Part shown: one piece after another, positions 27,901-43,495 of the stretch
Position numbering within the stretch: position 1 is the stretch's first letter
Layout: each line of letters begins with the position of its first letter
Source of the DNA: Escherichia phage vB_Ec-G9
Length of the DNA: 44,261 bases
Sequence record: PQ433351.1
Direction: 5' to 3' (one strand)
Position numbers and translations under genes: made by a program
The notes under the pieces: generated by a model
What the model was told of the DNA's origin: nothing
Databases searched by the model: none
What the model saw: the letters and a program-made list of their open reading frames with translations, nothing else

Positions 27901-28158
27901 GGCCTAGGTGTTCTACCTTCTGAGTTAGTACAATCCCGTTATGAGGCTGGATTTCAGACTAAGGGTTTGATAGACCAAATACCACTAGTAGGTGTTGGTC
28001 AAGATGCATATCGTTTAGCAGCTTCTATAACTAAATACGCAGAGGGTGATACAGAAGGTGTAGATGTGGCACGTAGGGCTTTACGCTTAGTGCCTCTAGC
28101 TAATGTAATAGGAATCCAGAACGCATTGCGTTATGGCTTAGATGAACTGGAGGATTAA
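24961..28158 (+). CDS. internal virion protein C (ejection/core protein, 1065 aa)
   Basis: Size and position equivalent to T7 gp16; RBS GGAGG. Confidence 0.8.
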   Translation: MEQDIKTNWAGYVQSTPEPFSIEAAPVLAPTIRQRNELQEQVLEAKADADILGAVGAAFQNEWLAFGGKRWYDRATADFTPQPDFEIQPEQREALRFKYGTDMMQTITEGVRSEDELNFRIQNADEDLERNKRIAQAGWVGSVATIGAAVLDPVGWVASIPTGGAAKVGLVGRAVRGAIAAGVSNAAIESVLVQGDMTRDLDDIMVALGSGMAMGGVIGAVARGRATKLSEQGDDRAASVVRSADAGDRYVRAVADDSIGAMRVKGAEVLTEGVFDISSKGEDLLKTLQREGNAIDMTPRRWAGTMSALGTVVHSSKDASIRGLGARLFESPQGLGAQKASASLMQNTNLNRLKSADMNRFNDGFDLWLKENNINPVAGHTNSHYVQQYNEKVWEAVRIGMDESTPKSIRMAAEGQQAMYREALALRKRSGEAGFENIKADDKYMPDIFDTMKARRQFDRIGKDIDKEDIIELFSRAYQNGARKIPKEAADEIARAQVNRVADATLTGKLSFEKAMSGQTKAEYEAIMRKAGFSDEEIEKMVEALDNKETRDNISNRAKMSLGLDVTQEYNGIRMRDFMNTNVEELTDNYMKEAAGGAALARQGFSTYQAALNAIDLVERNARNAAKDSKASLALDEEIRQMREGLRLIMGKSIDADPQAISTKMMRRGRDITGVLRLGQMGFAQLGELANFMGEFGIAATTIALGKQFRFTSKALRSGDGFFRDKNLAEVERMVGYIGEDNWLTTKGARPDEFGDVTTVRGMMAHFDQSMNSIRRAQTNLSLFRMAQGSLERMTNRQIALSFIDHLEGKKIIPQKKLEELGLTQEVMTNLQKHYDANSKGSGLLGFDTMPYAMGETLANAIRRKSGLIIQRNFIGDEGIWMNKALGKTFAQLKSFSLVSGEKQFGRGIRHDKIGLAKKTAYGFALGSIVYAAKAYVNSIGREDQDEYLEEKLSPKGLAFGAMGMMSTTAVFSLGGDFLGGLGVLPSELVQSRYEAGFQTKGLIDQIPLVGVGQDAYRLAASITKYAEGDTEGVDVARRALRLVPLANVIGIQNALRYGLDELED

Positions 28159-29120
28159 TGAGTTATACTTTCACAGAACATATAGCCAACGGTACGCAAG
28201 TAACCTATCCCTTTAGCTTTGCTGGTAGGGATAAAGGTTATCTTCGTGCCTCAGATGTGATAGTGGAATCTCTTCAAGGTAACACTTGGATTGAGGTTAC
28301 ATCTGGCTGGCAACTAACTGGCACGCACCAGATTACTTTTGATGTAGCACCAGTTGCAGGTTTGAAGTTCCGTATTCGGAGGGAAGTACAAAAGGAGTAT
28401 CCATACGCTGAGTTTGACCGTGGTGTTACCTTGGATATGAAGTCTTTAAATGGTTCTTTCATTCATATACTGGAGATTACACAGGAGTTACTTGACGGGT
28501 TTTATCCAGAAGGATACTTCATTAAACAGAATGTAAGCTGGGGTGGCAATAAGATTACTGATTTGGCTGATGGCACAAACCCGGGAGATGCAGTAAATAA
28601 AGGGCAGCTTGATGCCATTGACAAGAAGCATACAAATTGGAACACCAAACAGGATATTGAGATTGCTGGCCTTAAGGCTAGTATGACTTCTGGTATTGCG
28701 CACAGAACTGTTCCTTGGTACACGATAGCCCAAGGTGGTGAGATTTCCGTAAAACCACCTTATGAATTTCAAGATGCACTAGTTTTCCTTAATGGGGTAT
28801 TGCAGCACCAAATTGTAGGCGCATACTCTATAAGCAACAACACTATCACTTTCGCAGAGCCGCTTGTGGCTGGTACAGAGGTGTATGTGCTGATTGGTAG
28901 TCGTGTGGCTACATCTGAACCTAATATTCAGTTAGAGTTGAACTTTGACTTAGTAGAAGGCCAACAAGTAGTACAGATTGGCTCTGCATTTAAGTACATT
29001 GAGGTCTACCTTGATGGATTATTACAACCTAAACTTGCTTATCAGGTAGACGGTGACATTGTTACTTTCTCAGAGGGAGTGCCAGAATGCCGGATGACTG
29101 CTAAGATTATCACAGCATAA
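28158..29120 (+). CDS. tail fibre adaptor (T7 gp17 N-terminal domain-like)
   Basis: N-terminus MSYTFTEHIANGTQVTYPFSF and GGNKITDLADGTNPGDAVNKGQL parallel T7 gp17 N-terminal domain; no long distal domain. Confidence 0.75.
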   Translation: MSYTFTEHIANGTQVTYPFSFAGRDKGYLRASDVIVESLQGNTWIEVTSGWQLTGTHQITFDVAPVAGLKFRIRREVQKEYPYAEFDRGVTLDMKSLNGSFIHILEITQELLDGFYPEGYFIKQNVSWGGNKITDLADGTNPGDAVNKGQLDAIDKKHTNWNTKQDIEIAGLKASMTSGIAHRTVPWYTIAQGGEISVKPPYEFQDALVFLNGVLQHQIVGAYSISNNTITFAEPLVAGTEVYVLIGSRVATSEPNIQLELNFDLVEGQQVVQIGSAFKYIEVYLDGLLQPKLAYQVDGDIVTFSEGVPECRMTAKIITA

Positions 29121-31526: not shown

Positions 31527-31662
31527 AGGCCCAGATAATAAGAGAAAATAATAGGTAATATATAGGTTAACCTAGGTTATATAGGTATGCCTTAGTATGG
31601 GTGTACTCCTGTACACCCTATTCCTTACTACCTTACTATATTTACATAATAGGAGAGAGACA

Positions 31663-31938
31663 ATGGCTAATGATTATAGTAGTCAACCATTAACAGGTAA
31701 GTCTAAGAGAAAGCAGGTACAACCTGTAAGTGAAGAACTAATGCTTCCGGTACTCCCAAAAGAGGCAGCTAGTAAGAAAAGCAATGTTATTAATGATGCC
31801 ACCAAATCAGGTAAACAGAAAGGGGCCATGGTATGTCTTGAAGTGGACGGTGCATTGCAGATTGCTATCGCGGTTGATGGCAAAGAAGATTCAGAGTGGA
31901 AGTTAGTAACAGTGGGTTCCACTGTTACCCCAGTTTAA
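31663..31938 (+). CDS. hypothetical protein, paralogue 1 of tandem pair
   Basis: RBS AGGAGAG; shares SGKQKGAMV...IA(I/V)A...VTP with next gene. Confidence 0.6.
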   Translation: MANDYSSQPLTGKSKRKQVQPVSEELMLPVLPKEAASKKSNVINDATKSGKQKGAMVCLEVDGALQIAIAVDGKEDSEWKLVTVGSTVTPV

Positions 31939-31956: not shown

Positions 31957-32247
31957 ATGGCTAAATATGGTACTACAGGTTCTGTTACGGGTCAGGCTTT
32001 TCGAGTGAAAGCAGTACAAACTATTGCAACGGCAATTCCTATGCCTGTTGTTAAGGAAGCAGACCTTAAGAAGAAAGACCACCCTATCAACATCAAACAT
32101 TTATCAGGTAAACAGAAAGGTGCAATGGTTGCTCTTGAGAAAACTGACACAACCATGCATATTGCTGTTGCACGTGGCAGTGAACCAACAGACCCTTGGG
32201 ATGTAACTGGTATGGGAGTGGACGCTGTTACTCCAGCAGGGGAATAA
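31957..32247 (+). CDS. hypothetical protein, paralogue 2 of tandem pair
   Basis: RBS GAAGGAGG; paralogous to 31663..31938. Confidence 0.6.
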   Translation: MAKYGTTGSVTGQAFRVKAVQTIATAIPMPVVKEADLKKKDHPINIKHLSGKQKGAMVALEKTDTTMHIAVARGSEPTDPWDVTGMGVDAVTPAGE

Positions 32248-32852: not shown

Positions 32853-33063
32853 GTTTCTAGAAGTTCTGGCAGGTCTTATTGGCCTGCTTGTCTCTGCTAA
32901 GAAGAAACAAGAAGAGAAGGAGGCACAAAGTGAAGCGAATCATGTTAGTGACAACCCTTCTGATTGGTTCGCTGACCACTTCCGGGTGTCAGCAGGCGTT
33001 ACCAGAGAAAGCAATGGTGAAACCTCTGAGGCCGACGCTGACGGAAGTTTACGAGGTAGATGA
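32845..33063 (+). CDS. candidate i-spanin (Rz-like), GTG start
   Basis: N-terminal TM FLEVLAGLIGLLVSA then charged periplasmic part; contains embedded +1 frame lipoprotein ORF; weak start signals. Confidence 0.35.
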   Translation: MNKFLEVLAGLIGLLVSAKKKQEEKEAQSEANHVSDNPSDWFADHFRVSAGVTRESNGETSEADADGSLRGR

Positions 33064-33139
33064 TAAGGTCTGCTTTAGTAAGCCTGACGCTACAAAATTA
33101 GGTTTGTATATTCTTTCGCTAGAACGCGGATATAATTAA
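32942..33139 (+). CDS. candidate o-spanin (Rz1-like outer membrane lipoprotein)
   Basis: Lipobox-like LTTSGC after hydrophobic signal; starts inside Rz-like ORF in another frame and extends past it. Confidence 0.45.
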   Translation: MLVTTLLIGSLTTSGCQQALPEKAMVKPLRPTLTEVYEVDDKVCFSKPDATKLGLYILSLERGYN

Positions 33140-33167
33140 TACATAGCTTTATGTATCAGTGTCTTAC

Positions 33168-33192
33168 GATTTACTGGACACTATAGAAGAGG
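33168..33192 (+). promoter_or_regulatory. phage RNAP promoter upstream of tailspike genes
   Basis: GATTTACTGGACACTATAGAAGAGG. Confidence 0.8.
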
Positions 33193-33270
33193 TAAGATAG
33201 CGCCGTTCTTTTGAGCGGCCTATTACTAGCCAATCTTCATAGGGAGGGTTGGAAAGTAATAGGAGATAGC

Positions 33271-35169
33271 ATGGCTAAATTAACCAAACCTAATACTGAA
33301 GGAATCTTGCATAAAGGACAATCGTTGTATGAGTACCTTGATGCGAGAGTTTTAACATCAAAGCCGTTTGGTGCTGCAGGTGACGCCACTACTGATGATA
33401 CGGAGGTTATAGTTGCTTCATTAAACTCTCAGAAAGCTGTCACAGTCTCAGATGGTGTATTCTCTAGCTCTGGTATTAATAGTAATTACTGTAACTTAGA
33501 CGGTAGGGGTAGTGGCGTGCTAAGTCACCGTTCCAGTACAGGTAACTACTTAGTATTTAACAATCTACGTGCAGGTCGCTTAAGTAATATTACGGTAGAA
33601 AGTAATAAGGCGACTGATACAACTCAGGGACAGCAGGTATCTCTTGCTGGTGGAAGTGATGTTACTGTAAGTGACGTTAACTTCTCAAACGTTAAAGGTA
33701 CTGGTTTCAGTTTAATCGCATACCCTAATGATGCGCCACCTGATGGACTTATGATTAAAGGCATTCGAGGTAGCTATTCCGGCTATGCTACTAATAAGGC
33801 AGCCGGGTGTGTACTTGCTGACTCCTCAGTTAACTCCCTCATAGATAACGTCATTGCTAAGAACTACCCTCAGTTCGGAGCAGTAGAGCTGAAAGGTACA
33901 GCCAGTTATAACATAGTCAGCAATGTTATAGGGGCAGACTGCCAGCATGTAACTTACAACGGTACAGTAGGGTCAATAGCTCCCTCTAACAACCTTATCA
34001 ATGGGGTAGTGGCTAATAATCCTAAATATGCAGCGGTTGTTGCAGGCAAAGGTAGTACCAACTTAATCTCAGATGTGCTTGTAGATTTCTCAATCTCTGA
34101 TGCTAGTCAGGCTCACGGTGTTACAGTAGAAGGCTCTGATAACGTAATAAGCAATGTGCTTATGTCAGGATGTGATGGTACTAACTCTTCAGGACAAGCT
34201 CAAACTGCTACAATTGCGCGCTTTATAGGTACAGCTAATAACAACTATGCGTCTGTATTTCCTAGCTACAGTGCTACAGGTGTTATTACTTTCGAATCAG
34301 GTTCTACCCGTAACTTCGTAGAGGTAAAGCATCCGGGAAGGAGAAACGACCTTCTCAGTACTGCTAGTGCTATTGACGGTGCAGCTACTATTGACGGCAC
34401 TAGTAATAGTAACGTAGTGCACGCACCTGCCTTAGGGCAGTACATAGGTAGTATGTCAGGTAGGTTCGAATGGCGGATTAAGTCCATGTCACTCCCTTCA
34501 GGCGTTCTTACTTCTGCTGATAAGTACAGAATGCTTGGGGATGGTGCTGTGTCATTAGCTTTAGGTGGTGGCACTTCTTCTCAAGTTCGCCTATTTACTT
34601 CTGATGGTACTTCTCGGACAGTGTCCCTCACCAACGGTAACGTGCGTCTTTCTACCAGTAGCACAGGCTTTTTGCAGTTAGGTGCTGATGCAATGACCCC
34701 AGATAGTACTGGTACATACGCATTAGGTTCCGCCAGTCGAGCATGGTCTGGCGGTTTTACTCAAGCAGCATTCACTGTTACCTCAGATGCTCGGTGTAAA
34801 ACAGAACCTCTTACTATCTCAGATGCCTTACTGGATGCTTGGTCTGAAGTTGACTTTGTGCAGTTTCAGTATTTGGATCGTGTTGAGGAGAAGGGTGCAG
34901 ACTCAGCTAGATGGCACTTTGGCATCATAGCTCAGCGAGCTAAGGAGGCTTTCGAACGACACGGTATAGATGCACATCGCTATGGCTTCTTGTGCTTCGA
35001 CAGTTGGGATGATGTATACGAGGAAGATGCCAATGGCTCTCGTAAACTGATTACACCAGCAGGTTCCCGCTACGGTATTCGTTACGAGGAAGTACTGATA
35101 TTAGAGGCTGCGTTGATGCGGCGGACTATTAAGCGTATGCAGGAGGCACTAGCTTCCCTGCCTAAGTAA
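33271..35169 (+). CDS. tailspike 1 with beta-helix body and C-terminal intramolecular chaperone (peptidase S74-like) domain
   Basis: RBS AGGAG before ATG 33271; repetitive Ser/Thr/Asn/Gly-rich beta-helix-like body; C-terminal ~110 aa block (DARCKTEP...WHFGIIAQRAKEAF...GIRYEEVLILEAA) resembles the auto-cleaving chaperone domain of endosialidase/K5-lyase tailspikes, from memory. Confidence 0.7.
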   Translation: MAKLTKPNTEGILHKGQSLYEYLDARVLTSKPFGAAGDATTDDTEVIVASLNSQKAVTVSDGVFSSSGINSNYCNLDGRGSGVLSHRSSTGNYLVFNNLRAGRLSNITVESNKATDTTQGQQVSLAGGSDVTVSDVNFSNVKGTGFSLIAYPNDAPPDGLMIKGIRGSYSGYATNKAAGCVLADSSVNSLIDNVIAKNYPQFGAVELKGTASYNIVSNVIGADCQHVTYNGTVGSIAPSNNLINGVVANNPKYAAVVAGKGSTNLISDVLVDFSISDASQAHGVTVEGSDNVISNVLMSGCDGTNSSGQAQTATIARFIGTANNNYASVFPSYSATGVITFESGSTRNFVEVKHPGRRNDLLSTASAIDGAATIDGTSNSNVVHAPALGQYIGSMSGRFEWRIKSMSLPSGVLTSADKYRMLGDGAVSLALGGGTSSQVRLFTSDGTSRTVSLTNGNVRLSTSSTGFLQLGADAMTPDSTGTYALGSASRAWSGGFTQAAFTVTSDARCKTEPLTISDALLDAWSEVDFVQFQYLDRVEEKGADSARWHFGIIAQRAKEAFERHGIDAHRYGFLCFDSWDDVYEEDANGSRKLITPAGSRYGIRYEEVLILEAALMRRTIKRMQEALASLPK

Positions 35170-35175
35170 GCAACA

Positions 35176-35199
35176 GGCAGTGCGTAAGCACTGCTTTTC
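35176..35199 (+). terminator. intrinsic terminator between the two tailspike genes
   Basis: GGCAGTGC-GTAA-GCACTGC stem with tetraloop followed by TTTT. Confidence 0.6.
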
Positions 35200-35254
35200 A
35201 CGCAACTTTTCTTAAAGGTTATCATGGTGGTAGCCTTTCAGAAAAGGAGGTTAC

Positions 35255-36967
35255 ATGCTTCAAAGATTAAGTGCTTACTTGGTGAAGTACAAGAGTAAAC
35301 TAACAGGTACTATTGAGCGCCTGCTATCTGATAAACTATCGGATACAATAGATGTTGCGGATTTTGGAGTTAATCCATCCTCTAATGACAACAGGCAAGC
35401 CCTTCAAGCTGCATTCAATGCGGTCAGACTGCTAGGCGGTGGTACTGTAGCAGTCACTAAAGCTGGCGAATATAAACTCAGTGGTACTGTTGAGATATTT
35501 GCTAATACACACTTCAAGGTTGCTAAAGGTGTAACATTTGTACGTGACTACGAAACAGGAGATACTCTATTCAGATTATCACAAGGGCAAGCTAGTAATG
35601 TAACAGTCAGTGGAGGTATCTATGAAGGCAATGGTCACACTAAGGGAGATACACCTTTTGTAGTATTTGCATCTACTAGTAATAATGATTTGAAGTTTGA
35701 AGGCATAACAGTTAACAATGTAGTGGACTACCACGCCATAGATTTAGCAGATTGGAACAACGTAGTTATTCGTGATTGTAAATTCCTAGGGTTTAAGAAT
35801 ACAGGCAGTCGTAACTTCTCAGAGGCTATACAGTTAGACCCAGGACTTATTACAGTAGGTCGCTATGTGCAGTCTAGTGGTTTACTGGTAGAGAATTGCT
35901 ATGCTGGCCCAAACCTTGATTCTGGATTTGGCGGGTATGGTGCTCTAGTAGGGAATCATGCATCAGCTTATGGTGTTCAAGATAACAACATTAGAATCCT
36001 AAATTGCACTACAGATGGTGCGCTCTTTGCAGGTGTACGTGTATTTAACTGGAAAAACTGGACAGTACGTGGTTGCACCTTTAGAAACTCTAATGCAAGA
36101 GGTGTTCATGTTACACCTGTCTCCTCTCAAACTAAACCGCAAGGAACTCGACAAGGTAGTGTTGTAGATTGTACTTTTGATGGCGTAAGAACACCAGTGC
36201 TAATTGCTGCACCATCTTGGCCTTTTACCGATATTAGTGACATTTGGCATGACCATATTGAAATTTCTAATAATATTATGATCCTCACAGAGGATGTATC
36301 CTATGGTGTAGATGCAAGGTGGTGTAAGAATTTAATTGTAAAAGGTAATACAGGCTCTGGTGGCTTAGGGTTAATCGGTTTACGCTTTGGGACAAAGTAC
36401 CACATCGAAGGTAATACTTGGGAAAACGGAAGAGGTAGTGGGATTTGGTTAAGTGAGTCTGATGCTACTACATTCATTGGTACTGGTTTATCAGGAGAAG
36501 GTATACTTAGTCGTAATATCTTCTCTAAATTAGGGCAACATGGTATTCATGTAAACTGCAAGGTTGGCGGTCTAGTGATTAAGGCTAATAATATGAAGGA
36601 AGTATCTACAGCTGAAGCAGGTAGGCACTTCATTAGCATAGACACAGGAGCTAACAACATCCTAGTAGAGGGTAATATTGGAGTAGATGGAGAAAGCCCT
36701 AACAAGCCAAGCCTTGGTATTAGTGTTACTTCTTCTTGCTCCAATATTAAACTAATTGGCAATGATTGCTATGGTACGCAAGCACCTCAGGATAACCAAG
36801 GAGTCGGTTCTAGTACGGTGATTGTTTATGGACTAAATGGCAATCCTACAACTTTAGGCGTAGGTGCACCTGTAGGCTCTTTAGCAACTAATATCAATGG
36901 GTCTGGTGGTAGTGCATTGTACGTTAAAAAATCTGGTACTTCTGCTAAAGGCTGGGTTGCAAAGTAG
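35255..36967 (+). CDS. tailspike 2, right-handed beta-helix (pectate-lyase-like depolymerase fold)
   Basis: Strong RBS AAAGGAGG; repeated NxxV / GNxG beta-helix-like motifs; no chaperone domain. Confidence 0.75.
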   Translation: MLQRLSAYLVKYKSKLTGTIERLLSDKLSDTIDVADFGVNPSSNDNRQALQAAFNAVRLLGGGTVAVTKAGEYKLSGTVEIFANTHFKVAKGVTFVRDYETGDTLFRLSQGQASNVTVSGGIYEGNGHTKGDTPFVVFASTSNNDLKFEGITVNNVVDYHAIDLADWNNVVIRDCKFLGFKNTGSRNFSEAIQLDPGLITVGRYVQSSGLLVENCYAGPNLDSGFGGYGALVGNHASAYGVQDNNIRILNCTTDGALFAGVRVFNWKNWTVRGCTFRNSNARGVHVTPVSSQTKPQGTRQGSVVDCTFDGVRTPVLIAAPSWPFTDISDIWHDHIEISNNIMILTEDVSYGVDARWCKNLIVKGNTGSGGLGLIGLRFGTKYHIEGNTWENGRGSGIWLSESDATTFIGTGLSGEGILSRNIFSKLGQHGIHVNCKVGGLVIKANNMKEVSTAEAGRHFISIDTGANNILVEGNIGVDGESPNKPSLGISVTSSCSNIKLIGNDCYGTQAPQDNQGVGSSTVIVYGLNGNPTTLGVGAPVGSLATNINGSGGSALYVKKSGTSAKGWVAK

Positions 36968-36978
36968 TAGGAGGTTGA

Positions 36979-37128
36979 ATGCCATTAATCAAATCAGTCA
37001 AGCAAAGTGCTGTACGCCAGAACACAGAAGAGCTTATTCAATCAGGACGTGACCATAAGCAAGCTTATGCGATTGCCAAGGATGTACAACGTCGTGCTAT
37101 GAAGAAACCTTCTGCATCTTCTGCGTAA
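36979..37128 (+). CDS. hypothetical small basic protein (49 aa)
   Basis: Strong RBS AGGAGG; below ORF-track cutoff. Confidence 0.4.
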   Translation: MPLIKSVKQSAVRQNTEELIQSGRDHKQAYAIAKDVQRRAMKKPSASSA

Positions 37129-37154
37129 GCAGGTTAATATCTTAGGAGGTAATT

Positions 37155-37616
37155 ATGGAAGTTTGGAGGCCTATTGCTGGTATACCAGATTACATGGTTT
37201 CCTCCTTTGGTCGTGTTAGATCTCATAAAAGAGGTAAGGTTACTATACTAAACCCTCCGCACGACAAAGGAGGTTATCGTAATGTTGTGCTACGTGTTAA
37301 TGGTGAAAAGATAAATCGCAAGGTACATAGGCTTGTGGCAGAGGCTTTCTTACCTAACCCTCACGGTTTACCTCAAGTAAATCACAAGGATGAAGTAAGA
37401 GACAATAATCATGTAAGTAATCTGGAGTGGTGTGATTGTGCATACAACGTAGATTACTCTCAAGCAGCTACTTATACTGTGATGTGCCCTAAAGGTAATA
37501 TCTTAGTAGTAAGGAATGTGGCTAAGTTTTGTAGGGAAAACGGATTAAGCAGTGGTTCTTTTACAGATATGCTTAAGGGAAGACGTAAGCAACATAAGGG
37601 TTATCGCTTAGTGTAA
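37155..37616 (+). CDS. HNH homing endonuclease (NUMOD4 + HNH)
   Basis: WRPIAGIPDYMVSSFGRV (NUMOD4-like) and VNHKDEVRDNNHVSNLEW (HNH). Confidence 0.8.
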   Translation: MEVWRPIAGIPDYMVSSFGRVRSHKRGKVTILNPPHDKGGYRNVVLRVNGEKINRKVHRLVAEAFLPNPHGLPQVNHKDEVRDNNHVSNLEWCDCAYNVDYSQAATYTVMCPKGNILVVRNVAKFCRENGLSSGSFTDMLKGRRKQHKGYRLV

Positions 37617-37669
37617 TACTTAGTGAGAGGGCTATACATGCCAAGTGGAAAATTTGATATGTATATGCG

Positions 37670-37980
37670 TCAAGTGTCTCGCCCTCGCCCTCGCCGGGTT
37701 GTCCCCATAGGGTGGCCTGAGGGAATCCGTCGAAGACGGGCAGGGCTGATGTCCTCCTTGGCTAGTACAAGGGAAGACCGAGGGAACGCCTAGGACGGCC
37801 TAGGGAATGGTTTAGTGGCGGACAAGGTGATTGCCTTAGTGAAGCCTCTTAGTACATTCCTGAGGCCATTCAGGGCGTTTATGAGGCATTGACAGGGTGG
37901 GCGTGGGTGGGCTATCTGTTCGTTTCGTTCACTCCGCTTGCGCTACGTTCACTCGCTCACGTGTACCTTAGGTTGTTCCT
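37670..37980. other. GC-rich non-coding segment; candidate terminal-repeat / genome-end region
   Basis: No ORF of 60 aa or more on either strand in 37617-38418; composition unlike flanking genes; short direct repeat CGTTCACTC twice. Confidence 0.3.
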
Positions 37981-37990
37981 TGATGGATAG

Positions 37991-38093
37991 CTTAGGTTAG
38001 CCTTAGTGGACTACCTTAGTTATAACCTTAGTGCTTATCTTAGTAATAGCTTAGTAGTGTACCTTAGTAAGTCTTAGTGTCTTCTCTTAGTGA
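37991..38093. repeat. array of about 9 short [CT]CTTAG[GT] heptamer-like repeats at about 12-bp period
   Basis: GCTTAGG, CCTTAGTG, CCTTAGTT, CCTTAGTG, TCTTAGTA, GCTTAGTA, CCTTAGTA, TCTTAGTG, TCTTAGTG; further scattered copies to 38410. Confidence 0.8.
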
Positions 38094-38238
38094 TTGCACA
38101 TGCAAGCATGTAAGATGCCATTAGGTCGCGGTCGGTAGACCGCTAAAGAAAGAGAATAGTAATAAGATGCAGTAGGAGGAACACCAGAAACCTAGCCAAC
38201 CTAGCCTATCCTAGCTCTGTATCTATTGCTTTTCCTTA

Positions 38239-38254
38239 GTCTCACATGTTAGAC
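38239..38254. repeat. palindrome variant GTCTCACATGTTAGAC (copy 5)
   Basis: One half-site base changed. Confidence 0.75.
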
Positions 38255-38288
38255 AACCTAGCTTATTCTTAGTGATGATAACTTAGTG

Positions 38289-38317
38289 TTGACAAGATAA
38301 TCTTAGTGTAATACTAT
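38289..38317 (+). promoter_or_regulatory. host sigma70-type early promoter candidate
   Basis: TTGACA - 17 bp - TACTAT. Confidence 0.55.
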
Positions 38318-38389
38318 GCATCACGTAGGCGGTGCTGAGGCACCTAGTAGCCAGCTAGTAAGGCATACGAAGAGACTAGCGCTTACATT

Positions 38390-38401
38390 GCTCTTTAACA
38401 A
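38390..38401 (+). promoter_or_regulatory. boxA-like antitermination element (copy 1)
   Basis: GCTCTTTAACAA, extended TTGCTCTTTAACAATTTG, identical to E. coli rrn boxA core. Confidence 0.6.
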
Positions 38402-43470: not shown

Positions 43471-43495
43471 TTATTTACCGGACACTATAGGATAG
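43471..43495 (+). promoter_or_regulatory. phage RNAP promoter
   Basis: TTATTTACCGGACACTATAGGATAG. Confidence 0.7.

Follow-up and report, generated by a model that had tools for sequence, protein, structure and literature searches.

The tailspike locus of Escherichia phage vB_Ec-G9 compared with the dual-spike system of phage K1-5

The closest described system is the gp37/gp46/gp47 dual-tailspike system of phage K1-5 (Scholl et al. 2001; Leiman et al. 2007, as summarised in PMC6872550 and PMC5380687), in which gp37 acts as an adaptor with two docking sites for spikes (PMC6872550). Phage SP6 has the same architecture, with gp46, gp47 and the adaptor gp37; according to papers that cite Gebhart 2017 and Tu 2017, both of its spikes are directed against O-antigens of Salmonella, and a K5 lyase is not among them. 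The self-cleaving chaperone domain was defined in four families of phage proteins, one of them the K5 lyases, and a Ser/Lys dyad whose members are five residues apart (S911/K916) is essential in endoNF (PMC8326128). A pair of spike genes like the one described here has been published for LL11 (PMC6687929), vKMB47 (PMC11162368) and Sem1-4 (PMC13005862). The dual-spike adaptor design, the K5 lyase, the self-cleaving chaperone and even the particular second spike are already known.

Genome and spike cassette

The window, which means the whole stretch of 44,261 nucleotides that was analysed (PQ433351.1), holds, in circularly permuted form, the genome of a Vectrevirus, a K1-5-like podophage of the T7 supergroup. 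The right end of the K1-5 genome maps at about position 37914. Over most of its length the genome is 95-97% identical to vKMB47, 101101UKE1, VEc3 and LL11. Two spike genes lie side by side close to the right end of the genome; a phage promoter precedes them, and a conserved spacer of about 85 nt sits between them. The preliminary description had placed two tailspike genes in 33271-36967, and both were found there, at 33271-35169 and 35255-36967. The main parts of the cassette are:

28158-29120, plus strand: tail adaptor, K1-5 gp37 homologue, 320 aa (Pfam Phage_T7_tail at residues 3-153; 98% identity to K1-5 gp37)
33169-33191, plus strand: phage RNA polymerase promoter of SP6/K1-5 type, expected to drive the spike cassette (perfect match to the window's own consensus ATTTACTGGACACTATAGAAGAG)
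33271-35169, plus strand: tailspike 1, K5 capsule (heparosan) lyase of KflA/gp46 type, 632 aa precursor (98% identity to K1-5 gp46)
33271-33291, plus strand: spike 1 docking heptapeptide MAKLTKP (identical to the peptide given in PMC6872550)
35255-36967, plus strand: tailspike 2 of LL11 gp53 type, 570 aa, 60.4 kDa, presumed depolymerase, without chaperone domain
35255-35287, plus strand: spike 2 docking undecapeptide MLQRLSAYLVK (7/11 identical to K1-5 gp47 MIQRLGSSLVK)

We are highly confident that the locus is a K1-5-type dual tailspike cassette, the receptor-binding cassette of a K1-5-like podophage of genus Vectrevirus. K1-5 belongs to the same genus and has the same gene order. Besides the 98% identities of adaptor and K5 lyase, the two phages have the promoter, the leader, the 85-nt spacer and the docking peptides in common. 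The difference lies in the second spike, which is an 811-aa K1 endosialidase in K1-5 but a 570-aa beta-helix protein in the window; K1-5 gp47 belongs to the endosialidase family, which has the S74 chaperone, whereas spike 2 of the window is without it. K1-5 also lacks the HNH endonuclease gene that the window carries downstream of the spikes. Because the locus is nearly identical to the characterised K1-5 system, the main elements of the earlier reading are supported.

The LL11 gp52/gp53 pair is also present in EC120, 101101UKE1, vKMB47, Sem1-4, EEc2/4, 6948/6949 and LI10P3, and in these carriers the whole 33000-37200 region is 95-97% identical to the window. LL11 shares a terminator annotation and the downstream HNH gene with the window as well. 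The carriers differ in the K5 lyase, where the window has a divergent patch (codons ~200-370).

The gp17-N-like adaptor that had been proposed at 28158 was confirmed by the Phage_T7_tail match and the identity to K1-5 gp37. Its N-terminal domain is of the tail-binding T7 gp17-like type, and a receptor-binding domain is absent. The protein is ~71% identical to the SP6 counterpart gp37, and showed a dN/dS of 0.09 against K1-5. The first ~35 residues of spike 2 align to K1-5 gp47. By analogy with K1-5, six gp37-like adaptor trimers would be present on the tail, and each would hold one spike 1 trimer and one spike 2 trimer through their short N-terminal peptides, so that both spikes are expected on the virion from homology to the K1-5/K5A work.

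The promoter consensus had 8 matches in the window against 0 expected by chance, and the next one downstream of 33169 was at 43473. Scanning the window with this consensus revealed no phage promoter between the spike 1 and spike 2 genes. The promoter and leader are kept in LL11, K1-5, K1E and SP6, and the promoter at 33169 would transcribe both spike genes.

Spike 1 and its chaperone domain

The spike 1 gene starts with ATG at 33271, preceded by an AGGAG ribosome-binding site, and stops at 35169. The protein matched PHROG 14895 (tail spike) over its full length, and its residues 1-505 aligned end to end and without gaps to the K5 lyase of PDB 2x3h with ~97% identity (1040 bits). Thompson et al. 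2010 is said to be the work on this enzyme, the K5A lyase KflA. [quoted passage not shown] Judged by its sequence, spike 1 is a K5 heparosan lyase. The mature protein of about 52 kDa would cut the K5 capsule by beta-elimination, an activity expected from homology to K1-5 and K5A.

Between KflA, which comes from another phage, and spike 1 there are ~15-20 substitutions, and these concentrate at residues 222-367. In its middle (codons ~200-370) spike 1 carries a divergent allele, in which nine substitutions, R279S among them, are private; the private changes fall at 273-367. This patch was nearest to the K5 lyase encoded by UE-M6, UE-S5a and UE-M3, phages of 74-76 kb (97.3-97.7%), compared with 92-93% for the Vectrevirus relatives carrying the LL11-type pair. 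Positive selection on the private changes was considered and rejected: the patch also has a cluster of synonymous changes, and its sequence agrees with that of another K5 lyase lineage. The same two findings identify it as a recombination mosaic. Since the patch is divergent and includes R279S, the activity or fine specificity of spike 1 could differ from that of KflA.

The C-terminal part of spike 1 had been described as a chaperone block of roughly 110 aa. The block is present and is an S74-type chaperone, but its size is 128 aa (505-632):

34783-35169, plus strand: intramolecular chaperone/autocleavage domain (Peptidase S74, Pfam PF13884), residues 505-632, with Ser505 and Lys510

Residues 505-565 matched PF13884 Peptidase_S74 (E=1.6e-14, 54.3 bits, cut-off 22), and residues 505-630 aligned to the chaperone domain structures of phi29 gp12 (3gud, E=1e-23) and K1F endosialidase (3gw6, E=4e-21). 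In alignments to 3gud, 3gw6, 7y5s, 6eu4 and 4uw8, S505 and K510 take the Ser and Lys positions of the S-x4-K motif; the dyad segment S505-D-A-R-C-K510 aligns with S/K of 3gud and 3gw6, the latter being an S911A mutant. The dyad was kept in all eight relatives compared, and the deposited 2x3h chain stops at the residue equivalent to Ser505. The computed masses of spike 1, 66.5 kDa at full length and 51.8 kDa for residues 1-504, agree with the maturation listed for K1-5 ORF46, which is 67 to 52 kDa. Schwarzer 2007 and Schulz 2010 reportedly dealt with such a C-terminal intramolecular chaperone (ICA) domain. In spike 1, the S74 domain would drive folding of the trimeric stalk and, after folding, would cut itself off at Ser505 by means of the Ser505/Lys510 dyad, as homology to K1-5 and K5A suggests. 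The S74 domains of endoNF (3gw6), phi29 gp12 (3gud) and T5 pb1 (4uw8) have the S-x4-K dyad and the C-terminal helix region in common with spike 1 but are only 25-45% identical to its domain, and cleavage of spike 1 is predicted.

Spike 2 and its possible target

DNA homology to K1-5 (blastn) extends to 35308, which is codon 18 of spike 2, and resumes at 36976, just past the spike 2 stop. From codon 19 to the stop codon, spike 2 stands in place of the K1 endosialidase of K1-5. The right border of the exchanged module is formed by a small gene:

36979-37128, plus strand: small conserved ORF of 49 aa, K1-5 gp48 homologue (PHROG 2423, E=4.5e-23)

Occupying the K1 endosialidase slot of K1-5, spike 2 would give the phage a second host specificity. 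Its body is a right-handed parallel beta-helix, and the protein models as a complete beta-helix. A Pfam profile search of the 570 aa gave no S74 match at E<=0.01, and the C-terminal end is a different conserved motif. This matches the earlier claim that tailspike 2 is a beta-helix protein without the chaperone domain, and spike 2 would fold without an S74-type chaperone. About 21 of the sequenced Vectrevirus genomes carry spike 2. Its identity is 96% to LL11 gp53 and 96-98% across carriers of the same pair, and its dN/dS of 0.13 against LL11 shows purifying selection. Its invariant columns (H160, E190-D195 'EAIQLD', H235 and others) suggest an active site, and homologue searches gave no characterised close relative.

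The preliminary description had also proposed a dual-spike virion that recognises two polysaccharides. K5 as the first of them is shown by homology of spike 1, and the second is not covered by that homology. Spike 2 may target O-antigen and not capsule, which would give the phage one capsule depolymerase and one LPS-specific spike; we regard this as quite possible, if somewhat short of probable. The nearest relatives outside Vectrevirus have 44-51% identity and other anchor domains, and those in E. coli prophage-like proteins carry the P22-type head-binding domain PF09008, which is typical of O-antigen-specific spikes. The O-antigen endoglycosidases of HK620 and Sf6 are among the structural neighbours, and SP6, with its spikes for Salmonella O-antigens, is cited as a parallel. 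However, capsule depolymerases, adhesins and epimerases are equally frequent among the fold neighbours, so the fold of spike 2 does not discriminate O-antigen from capsule. The sole host hint is that vKMB47, which has the same spike 2, forms plaques on CFT073 (O6:K2), unlike vKMB14 (PMC11162368). Because CFT073 is O6:K2, this hint does not separate O6 from K2, and it is weakened further by the GenBank record of vKMB47, where a 55-nt insertion frameshifts the spike 2 gene after codon 34. The insertion may be an assembly artefact.

A K2-capsule depolymerase was considered separately for spike 2, in view of the plaques of vKMB47 on CFT073 and of remote homologues among the spikes of Gram-positive phages (SPO1 gp18.3, phi29-type appendages). 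It was unsupported: the literature search gave no substrate, the fold neighbours are generic and the vKMB47 record is frameshifted.

The practical value of these results lies in host-range prediction for phage therapy, where the expected hosts are K5-capsulated E. coli plus a second strain group. Assigning a substrate to spike 2 would give the E. coli depolymerase catalogue one more entry.

The spacer between the spike genes

The 85-nt spacer contains two conserved hairpins:

35175-35196, plus strand: hairpin 1, terminator-like stem-loop with 9 bp stem and GUAA loop (-14.8 kcal/mol, z=-5.2)
35206-35246, plus strand: hairpin 2, 7+11 bp (-19.7 kcal/mol, z=-5.4)

Across 11 phages, hairpin 1 had 4/9 pairs changed on both sides, with 96% of cells paired; its compensatory changes extend across genera. 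Hairpin 2 had 97.8% of cells paired with only one-sided, G-U-compatible changes, and is nearly invariant from SP6 to K1E; its 3' arm runs into the spike 2 Shine-Dalgarno AAGGAGG (35244-35250) and takes up three bases at the start of it. SP6 retains both the promoter leader and this spacer with its two hairpins; one pair of hairpin 1 shows a compensatory change there. The spacer is much better conserved than the flanking genes and was found in 111 phage records. Rfam had no family for it, either for the whole window at the gathering threshold or for 33000-38400 at E<=1.

The two spike genes had been described as separated by a terminator. A conserved and very stable hairpin is indeed there, and its GC-rich stem-loop is of the terminator kind; the LL11 record annotates 'terminator' at its position. 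Against this stand a short U-run and the lack of an own promoter for spike 2. Hairpin 1 is followed by UUUU only (35195-35198), of which the first two U also form the last two stem pairs, and then by CACG, so that the U-tract stays below 5/8 U. The consensus terminator scan of the window did not call hairpin 1 on the plus strand because it requires 5 T in 8. With only four U and no phage promoter following, any termination at hairpin 1 must be leaky, and from its sequence features the terminator role is not secure.

The hairpins may instead not be a terminator at all and may serve in RNA processing or stability (an RNase III-type site would be one example), combined with a translational gate for spike 2 and a homology arm for recombination of spike modules. 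We consider this possible, though less likely than not. RNase III-type sites lie between T7 late genes. Since spike 2 lacks its own promoter, transcription must read through the spacer, and full termination there is impossible. The U-run of hairpin 1 is short, in several relatives even shorter or missing, and is not conserved in the Proteus, Citrobacter, Lelliottia and Pectobacterium relatives, although the stem covaries, and hairpin 2 is an 18-bp duplex overlapping the spike 2 Shine-Dalgarno. The strong conservation of the spacer, whose 111 records include one in the 147-kb myovirus 'alia', immediately 3' of a putative spike gene, and the K1-5/window homology break just inside spike 2 also point in this direction. 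On the other hand, TransTermHP-based annotation gives hairpin 1 as a terminator in LL11 and KAW1A4500, and a GC-rich stem with UUUU is the usual partial terminator form for T7-type polymerases, which counts against a non-terminator reading. The lack of an Rfam match means no independent support for any RNA class of the spacer.

In a K1-5-type cassette read from a single promoter, the two-hairpin spacer would pass part of the transcription and would probably also tune spike 2 translation. A wider proposal is tentative and in our view unlikely: the spacer would be a functional RNA module that sets the spike ratio, by leaky termination at hairpin 1 and ribosome-binding site masking or processing at hairpin 2, and also a portable recombination junction that moves spike modules, even into large myoviruses, and spike 2 would be a depolymerase of a specificity assigned to no enzyme yet, for example for the teichoic-acid-like K2 capsule or the O6 antigen of ST73 uropathogens. 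If true, neither the spacer RNA module nor the novel spike 2 specificity would amount to a novel type of system. For engineered spike swaps, the conserved spacer offers a convenient natural junction that is already in use.

It is highly improbable that spike 2 is a decaying or non-assembled passenger and not a functional second receptor-binding protein, leaving in effect a single-spike K5 phage. Decay of one slot to a small inactive protein does occur, as the truncated gp46 remnant of K1E shows, and the vKMB47 record is frameshifted, perhaps only by its assembly. But the spike 2 gene of the window is full-length and intact and has kept its docking peptide along with a strong ribosome-binding site, its product has the complete beta-helix and low dN/dS given above, and the gene is also intact in EC120, 101101UKE1, LL11 and Sem1.

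Spike proteins and their adaptor

The ORF list returned both tailspike genes exactly where the preliminary description had put them, together with the gene of the adaptor:

28158-29120: adaptor ORF, 320 aa
33271-35169, + strand: spike 1, 632 aa, ATG at 33271 preceded by AGGAG
35255-36967, + strand: spike 2, 570 aa

Spike 1 showed 98% identity (617/632) with the K5 lyase gp46 of phage K1-5. Its residues 1-505 gave an ungapped alignment with the structure of K5A lyase KflA (PDB 2x3h); the chain deposited there ends exactly at the residue equivalent to Ser505. Pfam Peptidase_S74 matched residues 505-565 (E=1.6e-14, 54.3 bits, cut-off 22), and the last 128 residues aligned with the chaperone domains of phi29 gp12 (3gud), K1F endosialidase (3gw6), T5 pb1 (4uw8) and two other spikes; the S-x4-K motif of these solved domains fell on S505-D-A-R-C-K510, its Ser on S505 and its Lys on K510. 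A C-terminal chaperone had been proposed for the first spike, to be abandoned if the C-terminal block lacked S74 homology; because this homology was found, the proposal holds, and only the length of the block changes, from about 110 to 128 aa. The chaperone domain was defined on four phage families, K5 lyases among them, and self-cleavage of endoNF is impossible without its Ser/Lys dyad S911/K916 (PMC8326128). K1-5 ORF46 is listed in a review table at 67 kDa with a mature form of 52 kDa (PMC5380687), and the masses computed for spike 1 are 66.5 kDa (precursor), 51.8 kDa (residues 1-504) and 14.7 kDa (residues 505-632). From these similarities we infer proteolytic self-cleavage of spike 1.

Spike 2 had only the Pfam matches Beta_helix and NosD, which agrees with the earlier view of a beta-helix protein without chaperone. 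The AlphaFold2 model, made from the alignment of its relatives in a large protein collection, was a long right-handed beta-helix with mean pLDDT 84.8.

Residues 3-153 of the adaptor matched the T7 tail-fibre N-terminal domain (Pfam), as expected from its description as gp17-N-like, and the whole protein was 98% identical to K1-5 gp37. In the part of PMC6872550 that summarises Leiman et al. 2007, gp37 docks gp46 via the heptapeptide MAKLTKP and gp47 via the undecapeptide MIQRLGSSLVK. Spike 1 carries MAKLTKP exactly, and spike 2 carries MLQRLSAYLVK, identical to the undecapeptide at 7 of 11 positions. The dN/dS was about 0.1 in the adaptor, spike 1 and spike 2 genes, showing purifying selection on all three. 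Because of the adaptor homology, the docking peptides and this selection, a virion carrying both spikes is a well supported prediction by homology.

All parts of the dual-spike finding are already known, since three papers describe them. According to the LL11 announcement, one of the two tail-fibre proteins of this phage is identical to the K5 lyase and its partner is a distant relative of the K1 endosialidase; K1-5-like dual host recognition is proposed there (PMC6687929). The vKMB14/vKMB47 paper described two spike genes, the first K5 lyase-like and the second variable (PMC11162368), and the Sem1-4 paper described a beta-helix and a Peptidase S74 type of depolymerase (PMC13005862). The preliminary observation is confirmed and its interpretation supported, except for an over-firm "terminator"; the system itself was known before.

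Exchange and mosaicism in the spike genes

Spike 2 was 96% identical to LL11 gp53, and 21 phage records had it at >95% identity; among the matches listed, all were Vectrevirus-type genomes (one named Klebsiella phage). The next phage relatives were spikes of Gram-positive phages with merely 25-31% identity. The nearest other relatives, from the large protein collection, had 44-51% identity. They are anchored differently at the N-terminus, by PF18668 or by PF09008 (P22-type head-binding domain), as is common for receptor-binding modules that shift between anchor types. Resemblance to K1-5 gp47 was confined to the first ~35 residues. DNA homology to K1-5 ended at 35308 (spike 2 codon 18) and restarted at 36976, nine bases past the stop codon; judged from these borders, the unit exchanged relative to K1-5 is precisely the putative receptor-binding body of spike 2.

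At the end of spike 2 (window 36800-36964, residues ~515-570), the last ~35-50 residues contain the motif GAPVGSxYxRxDGGxxTTLYVKESGTxxxGWVAK, which is kept in relatives whose N-terminal anchors are of quite other kinds. Here the monomer model is weak (pLDDT ~50), and the region may be a trimer-dependent C-terminal domain.

Our literature search found no assignment of a substrate for spike 2. CFT073 (O6:K2:H1) is plaqued by phage vKMB47 but not by vKMB14, whose second spike is a different one (PMC11162368), a weak hint to K2 or O6 as target. This hint and any host-range inference from vKMB47 are weak because its GenBank record (vB-Eco-KMB47, OR424385; 2256-4023 of L008, the vKMB47 locus) carries within the spike 2 gene, past its nucleotide 103, a 55-nt insertion that causes a frameshift, and the gene is annotated there as two fragments. 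The insertion is an artefact of assembly, or else it knocks the gene out naturally.

Compared with 8 Vectrevirus relatives, spike 1 has a divergent allele in its central part: synonymous and non-synonymous changes clustered in codons ~200-370 (window 33868-34380), where its private residues include F273, I275, S279, S294, S307, A310, T364 and A367. The closest DNA match of this patch was the K5 lyase of UE-M6, UE-S5a and UE-M3, phages of 74-76 kb (97.3-97.7%), whereas other Vectrevirus reached only 92-93%. This match pattern indicates an intragenic recombination mosaic across phage families, which is ordinary among receptor-binding proteins.

The spacer between the spike genes

The fold of the 85-nt spacer (z-score -6.1 over its entire length) consists of two hairpins:

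35175-35196: hairpin 1, -14.8 kcal/mol
35206-35246: hairpin 2, -19.7 kcal/mol, overlapping the spike 2 Shine-Dalgarno sequence

It was close to invariant across LL11, K1-5, K1E and SP6, and 111 phage records contained it, spread over phages of Escherichia, Salmonella, Proteus, Citrobacter, Lelliottia and Pectobacterium; no Rfam family matched it. In an 11-phage alignment, hairpin 1 had both-sided changes in 4/9 pairs with 96% of cells paired, and hairpin 2 retained 97.8% pairing with one-sided, G-U-compatible changes. When partners were shifted by 1-3 columns as control, pairing fell to 36-56%. Because pairing is kept across the 11 phages and lost on sliding the partners, both stems are real structures under selection.

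The spike genes had been described as separated by a terminator. Hairpin 1 is real and conserved, and in the LL11 record it carries a terminator annotation, but the term is over-firm. The stem is followed by no more than four U, of which two pair within it; the U-run is shorter or absent among more distant relatives, and a consensus terminator scan gave no call at the + strand hairpin 1 site. Promoters were found as follows (at most 3 mismatches to consensus; chance expectation none):

1936, 6530, 6993, 8136, 16750, 31504, 33169, 43473, + strand: eight phage promoters, SP6/K1-5-type consensus ATTTACTGGACACTATAGAAGAG

The promoter that closely precedes spike 1 (33169-33191) matched the consensus perfectly. 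The scan of the window found none between the spike genes, therefore spike 2 relies on read-through. The spacer is a conserved structured element in which hairpin 1 may attenuate transcription; a role in processing, stability or translation is equally plausible.

A spacer copy was also observed in Escherichia phage alia (MN850632 22710-22786; 4001-4077 of L006, the alia locus), a 147-kb Justusliebigvirus myovirus. It follows immediately on the stop codon of alia_23, which codes for a hypothetical protein of 574 aa and lies in the tail-fibre region. In this copy hairpin 1 is identical and hairpin 2 mostly there. The spacer seems to accompany spike modules as these pass between podoviruses and myoviruses.

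Genome identity and neighbouring genes

Megablast of 33000-37200 matched 106 phage records, 17 of which had at least 80% query cover and 95-97% identity. All 17 belonged to genus Vectrevirus (Autographiviridae, Molineuxvirinae); records with this cover include LL11, EC120, vKMB47, 101101UKE1, EEc2/4, 6948/6949, Sem1-4 and LI10P3. The initial 25 kb gave the same Vectrevirus pattern. In the alignments, K1-5 has its right genome end at ~37914 and LL11 its record end at 38246; early-region genes begin past ~38400. From the Vectrevirus matches and the position of the K1-5 right end, the window is a circularly permuted, complete ~44 kb phage genome with every gene on the + strand. The permutation shows at ~37650-38250, where the K1-5 and LL11 ends align.

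Downstream of the spike cassette, 37155-37616 holds an HNH homing-endonuclease gene (153 aa; NUMOD4, HNH_3 and an I-HmuI-like NUMOD domain). LL11 likewise has an HNH gene, whereas K1-5 is without it and has a far shorter stretch matching 37146-37642.

Two adjacent small paralogous genes (31597-31938 and 31957-32247) have the common motif (K/L)SGKQKGAMV.LE. RefSeq names the homologues of both "acetyl-CoA acetyltransferase", which seems an unlikely function for proteins as short as 96-113 aa, and LL11 carries a note on this gene pair as a likely duplication.
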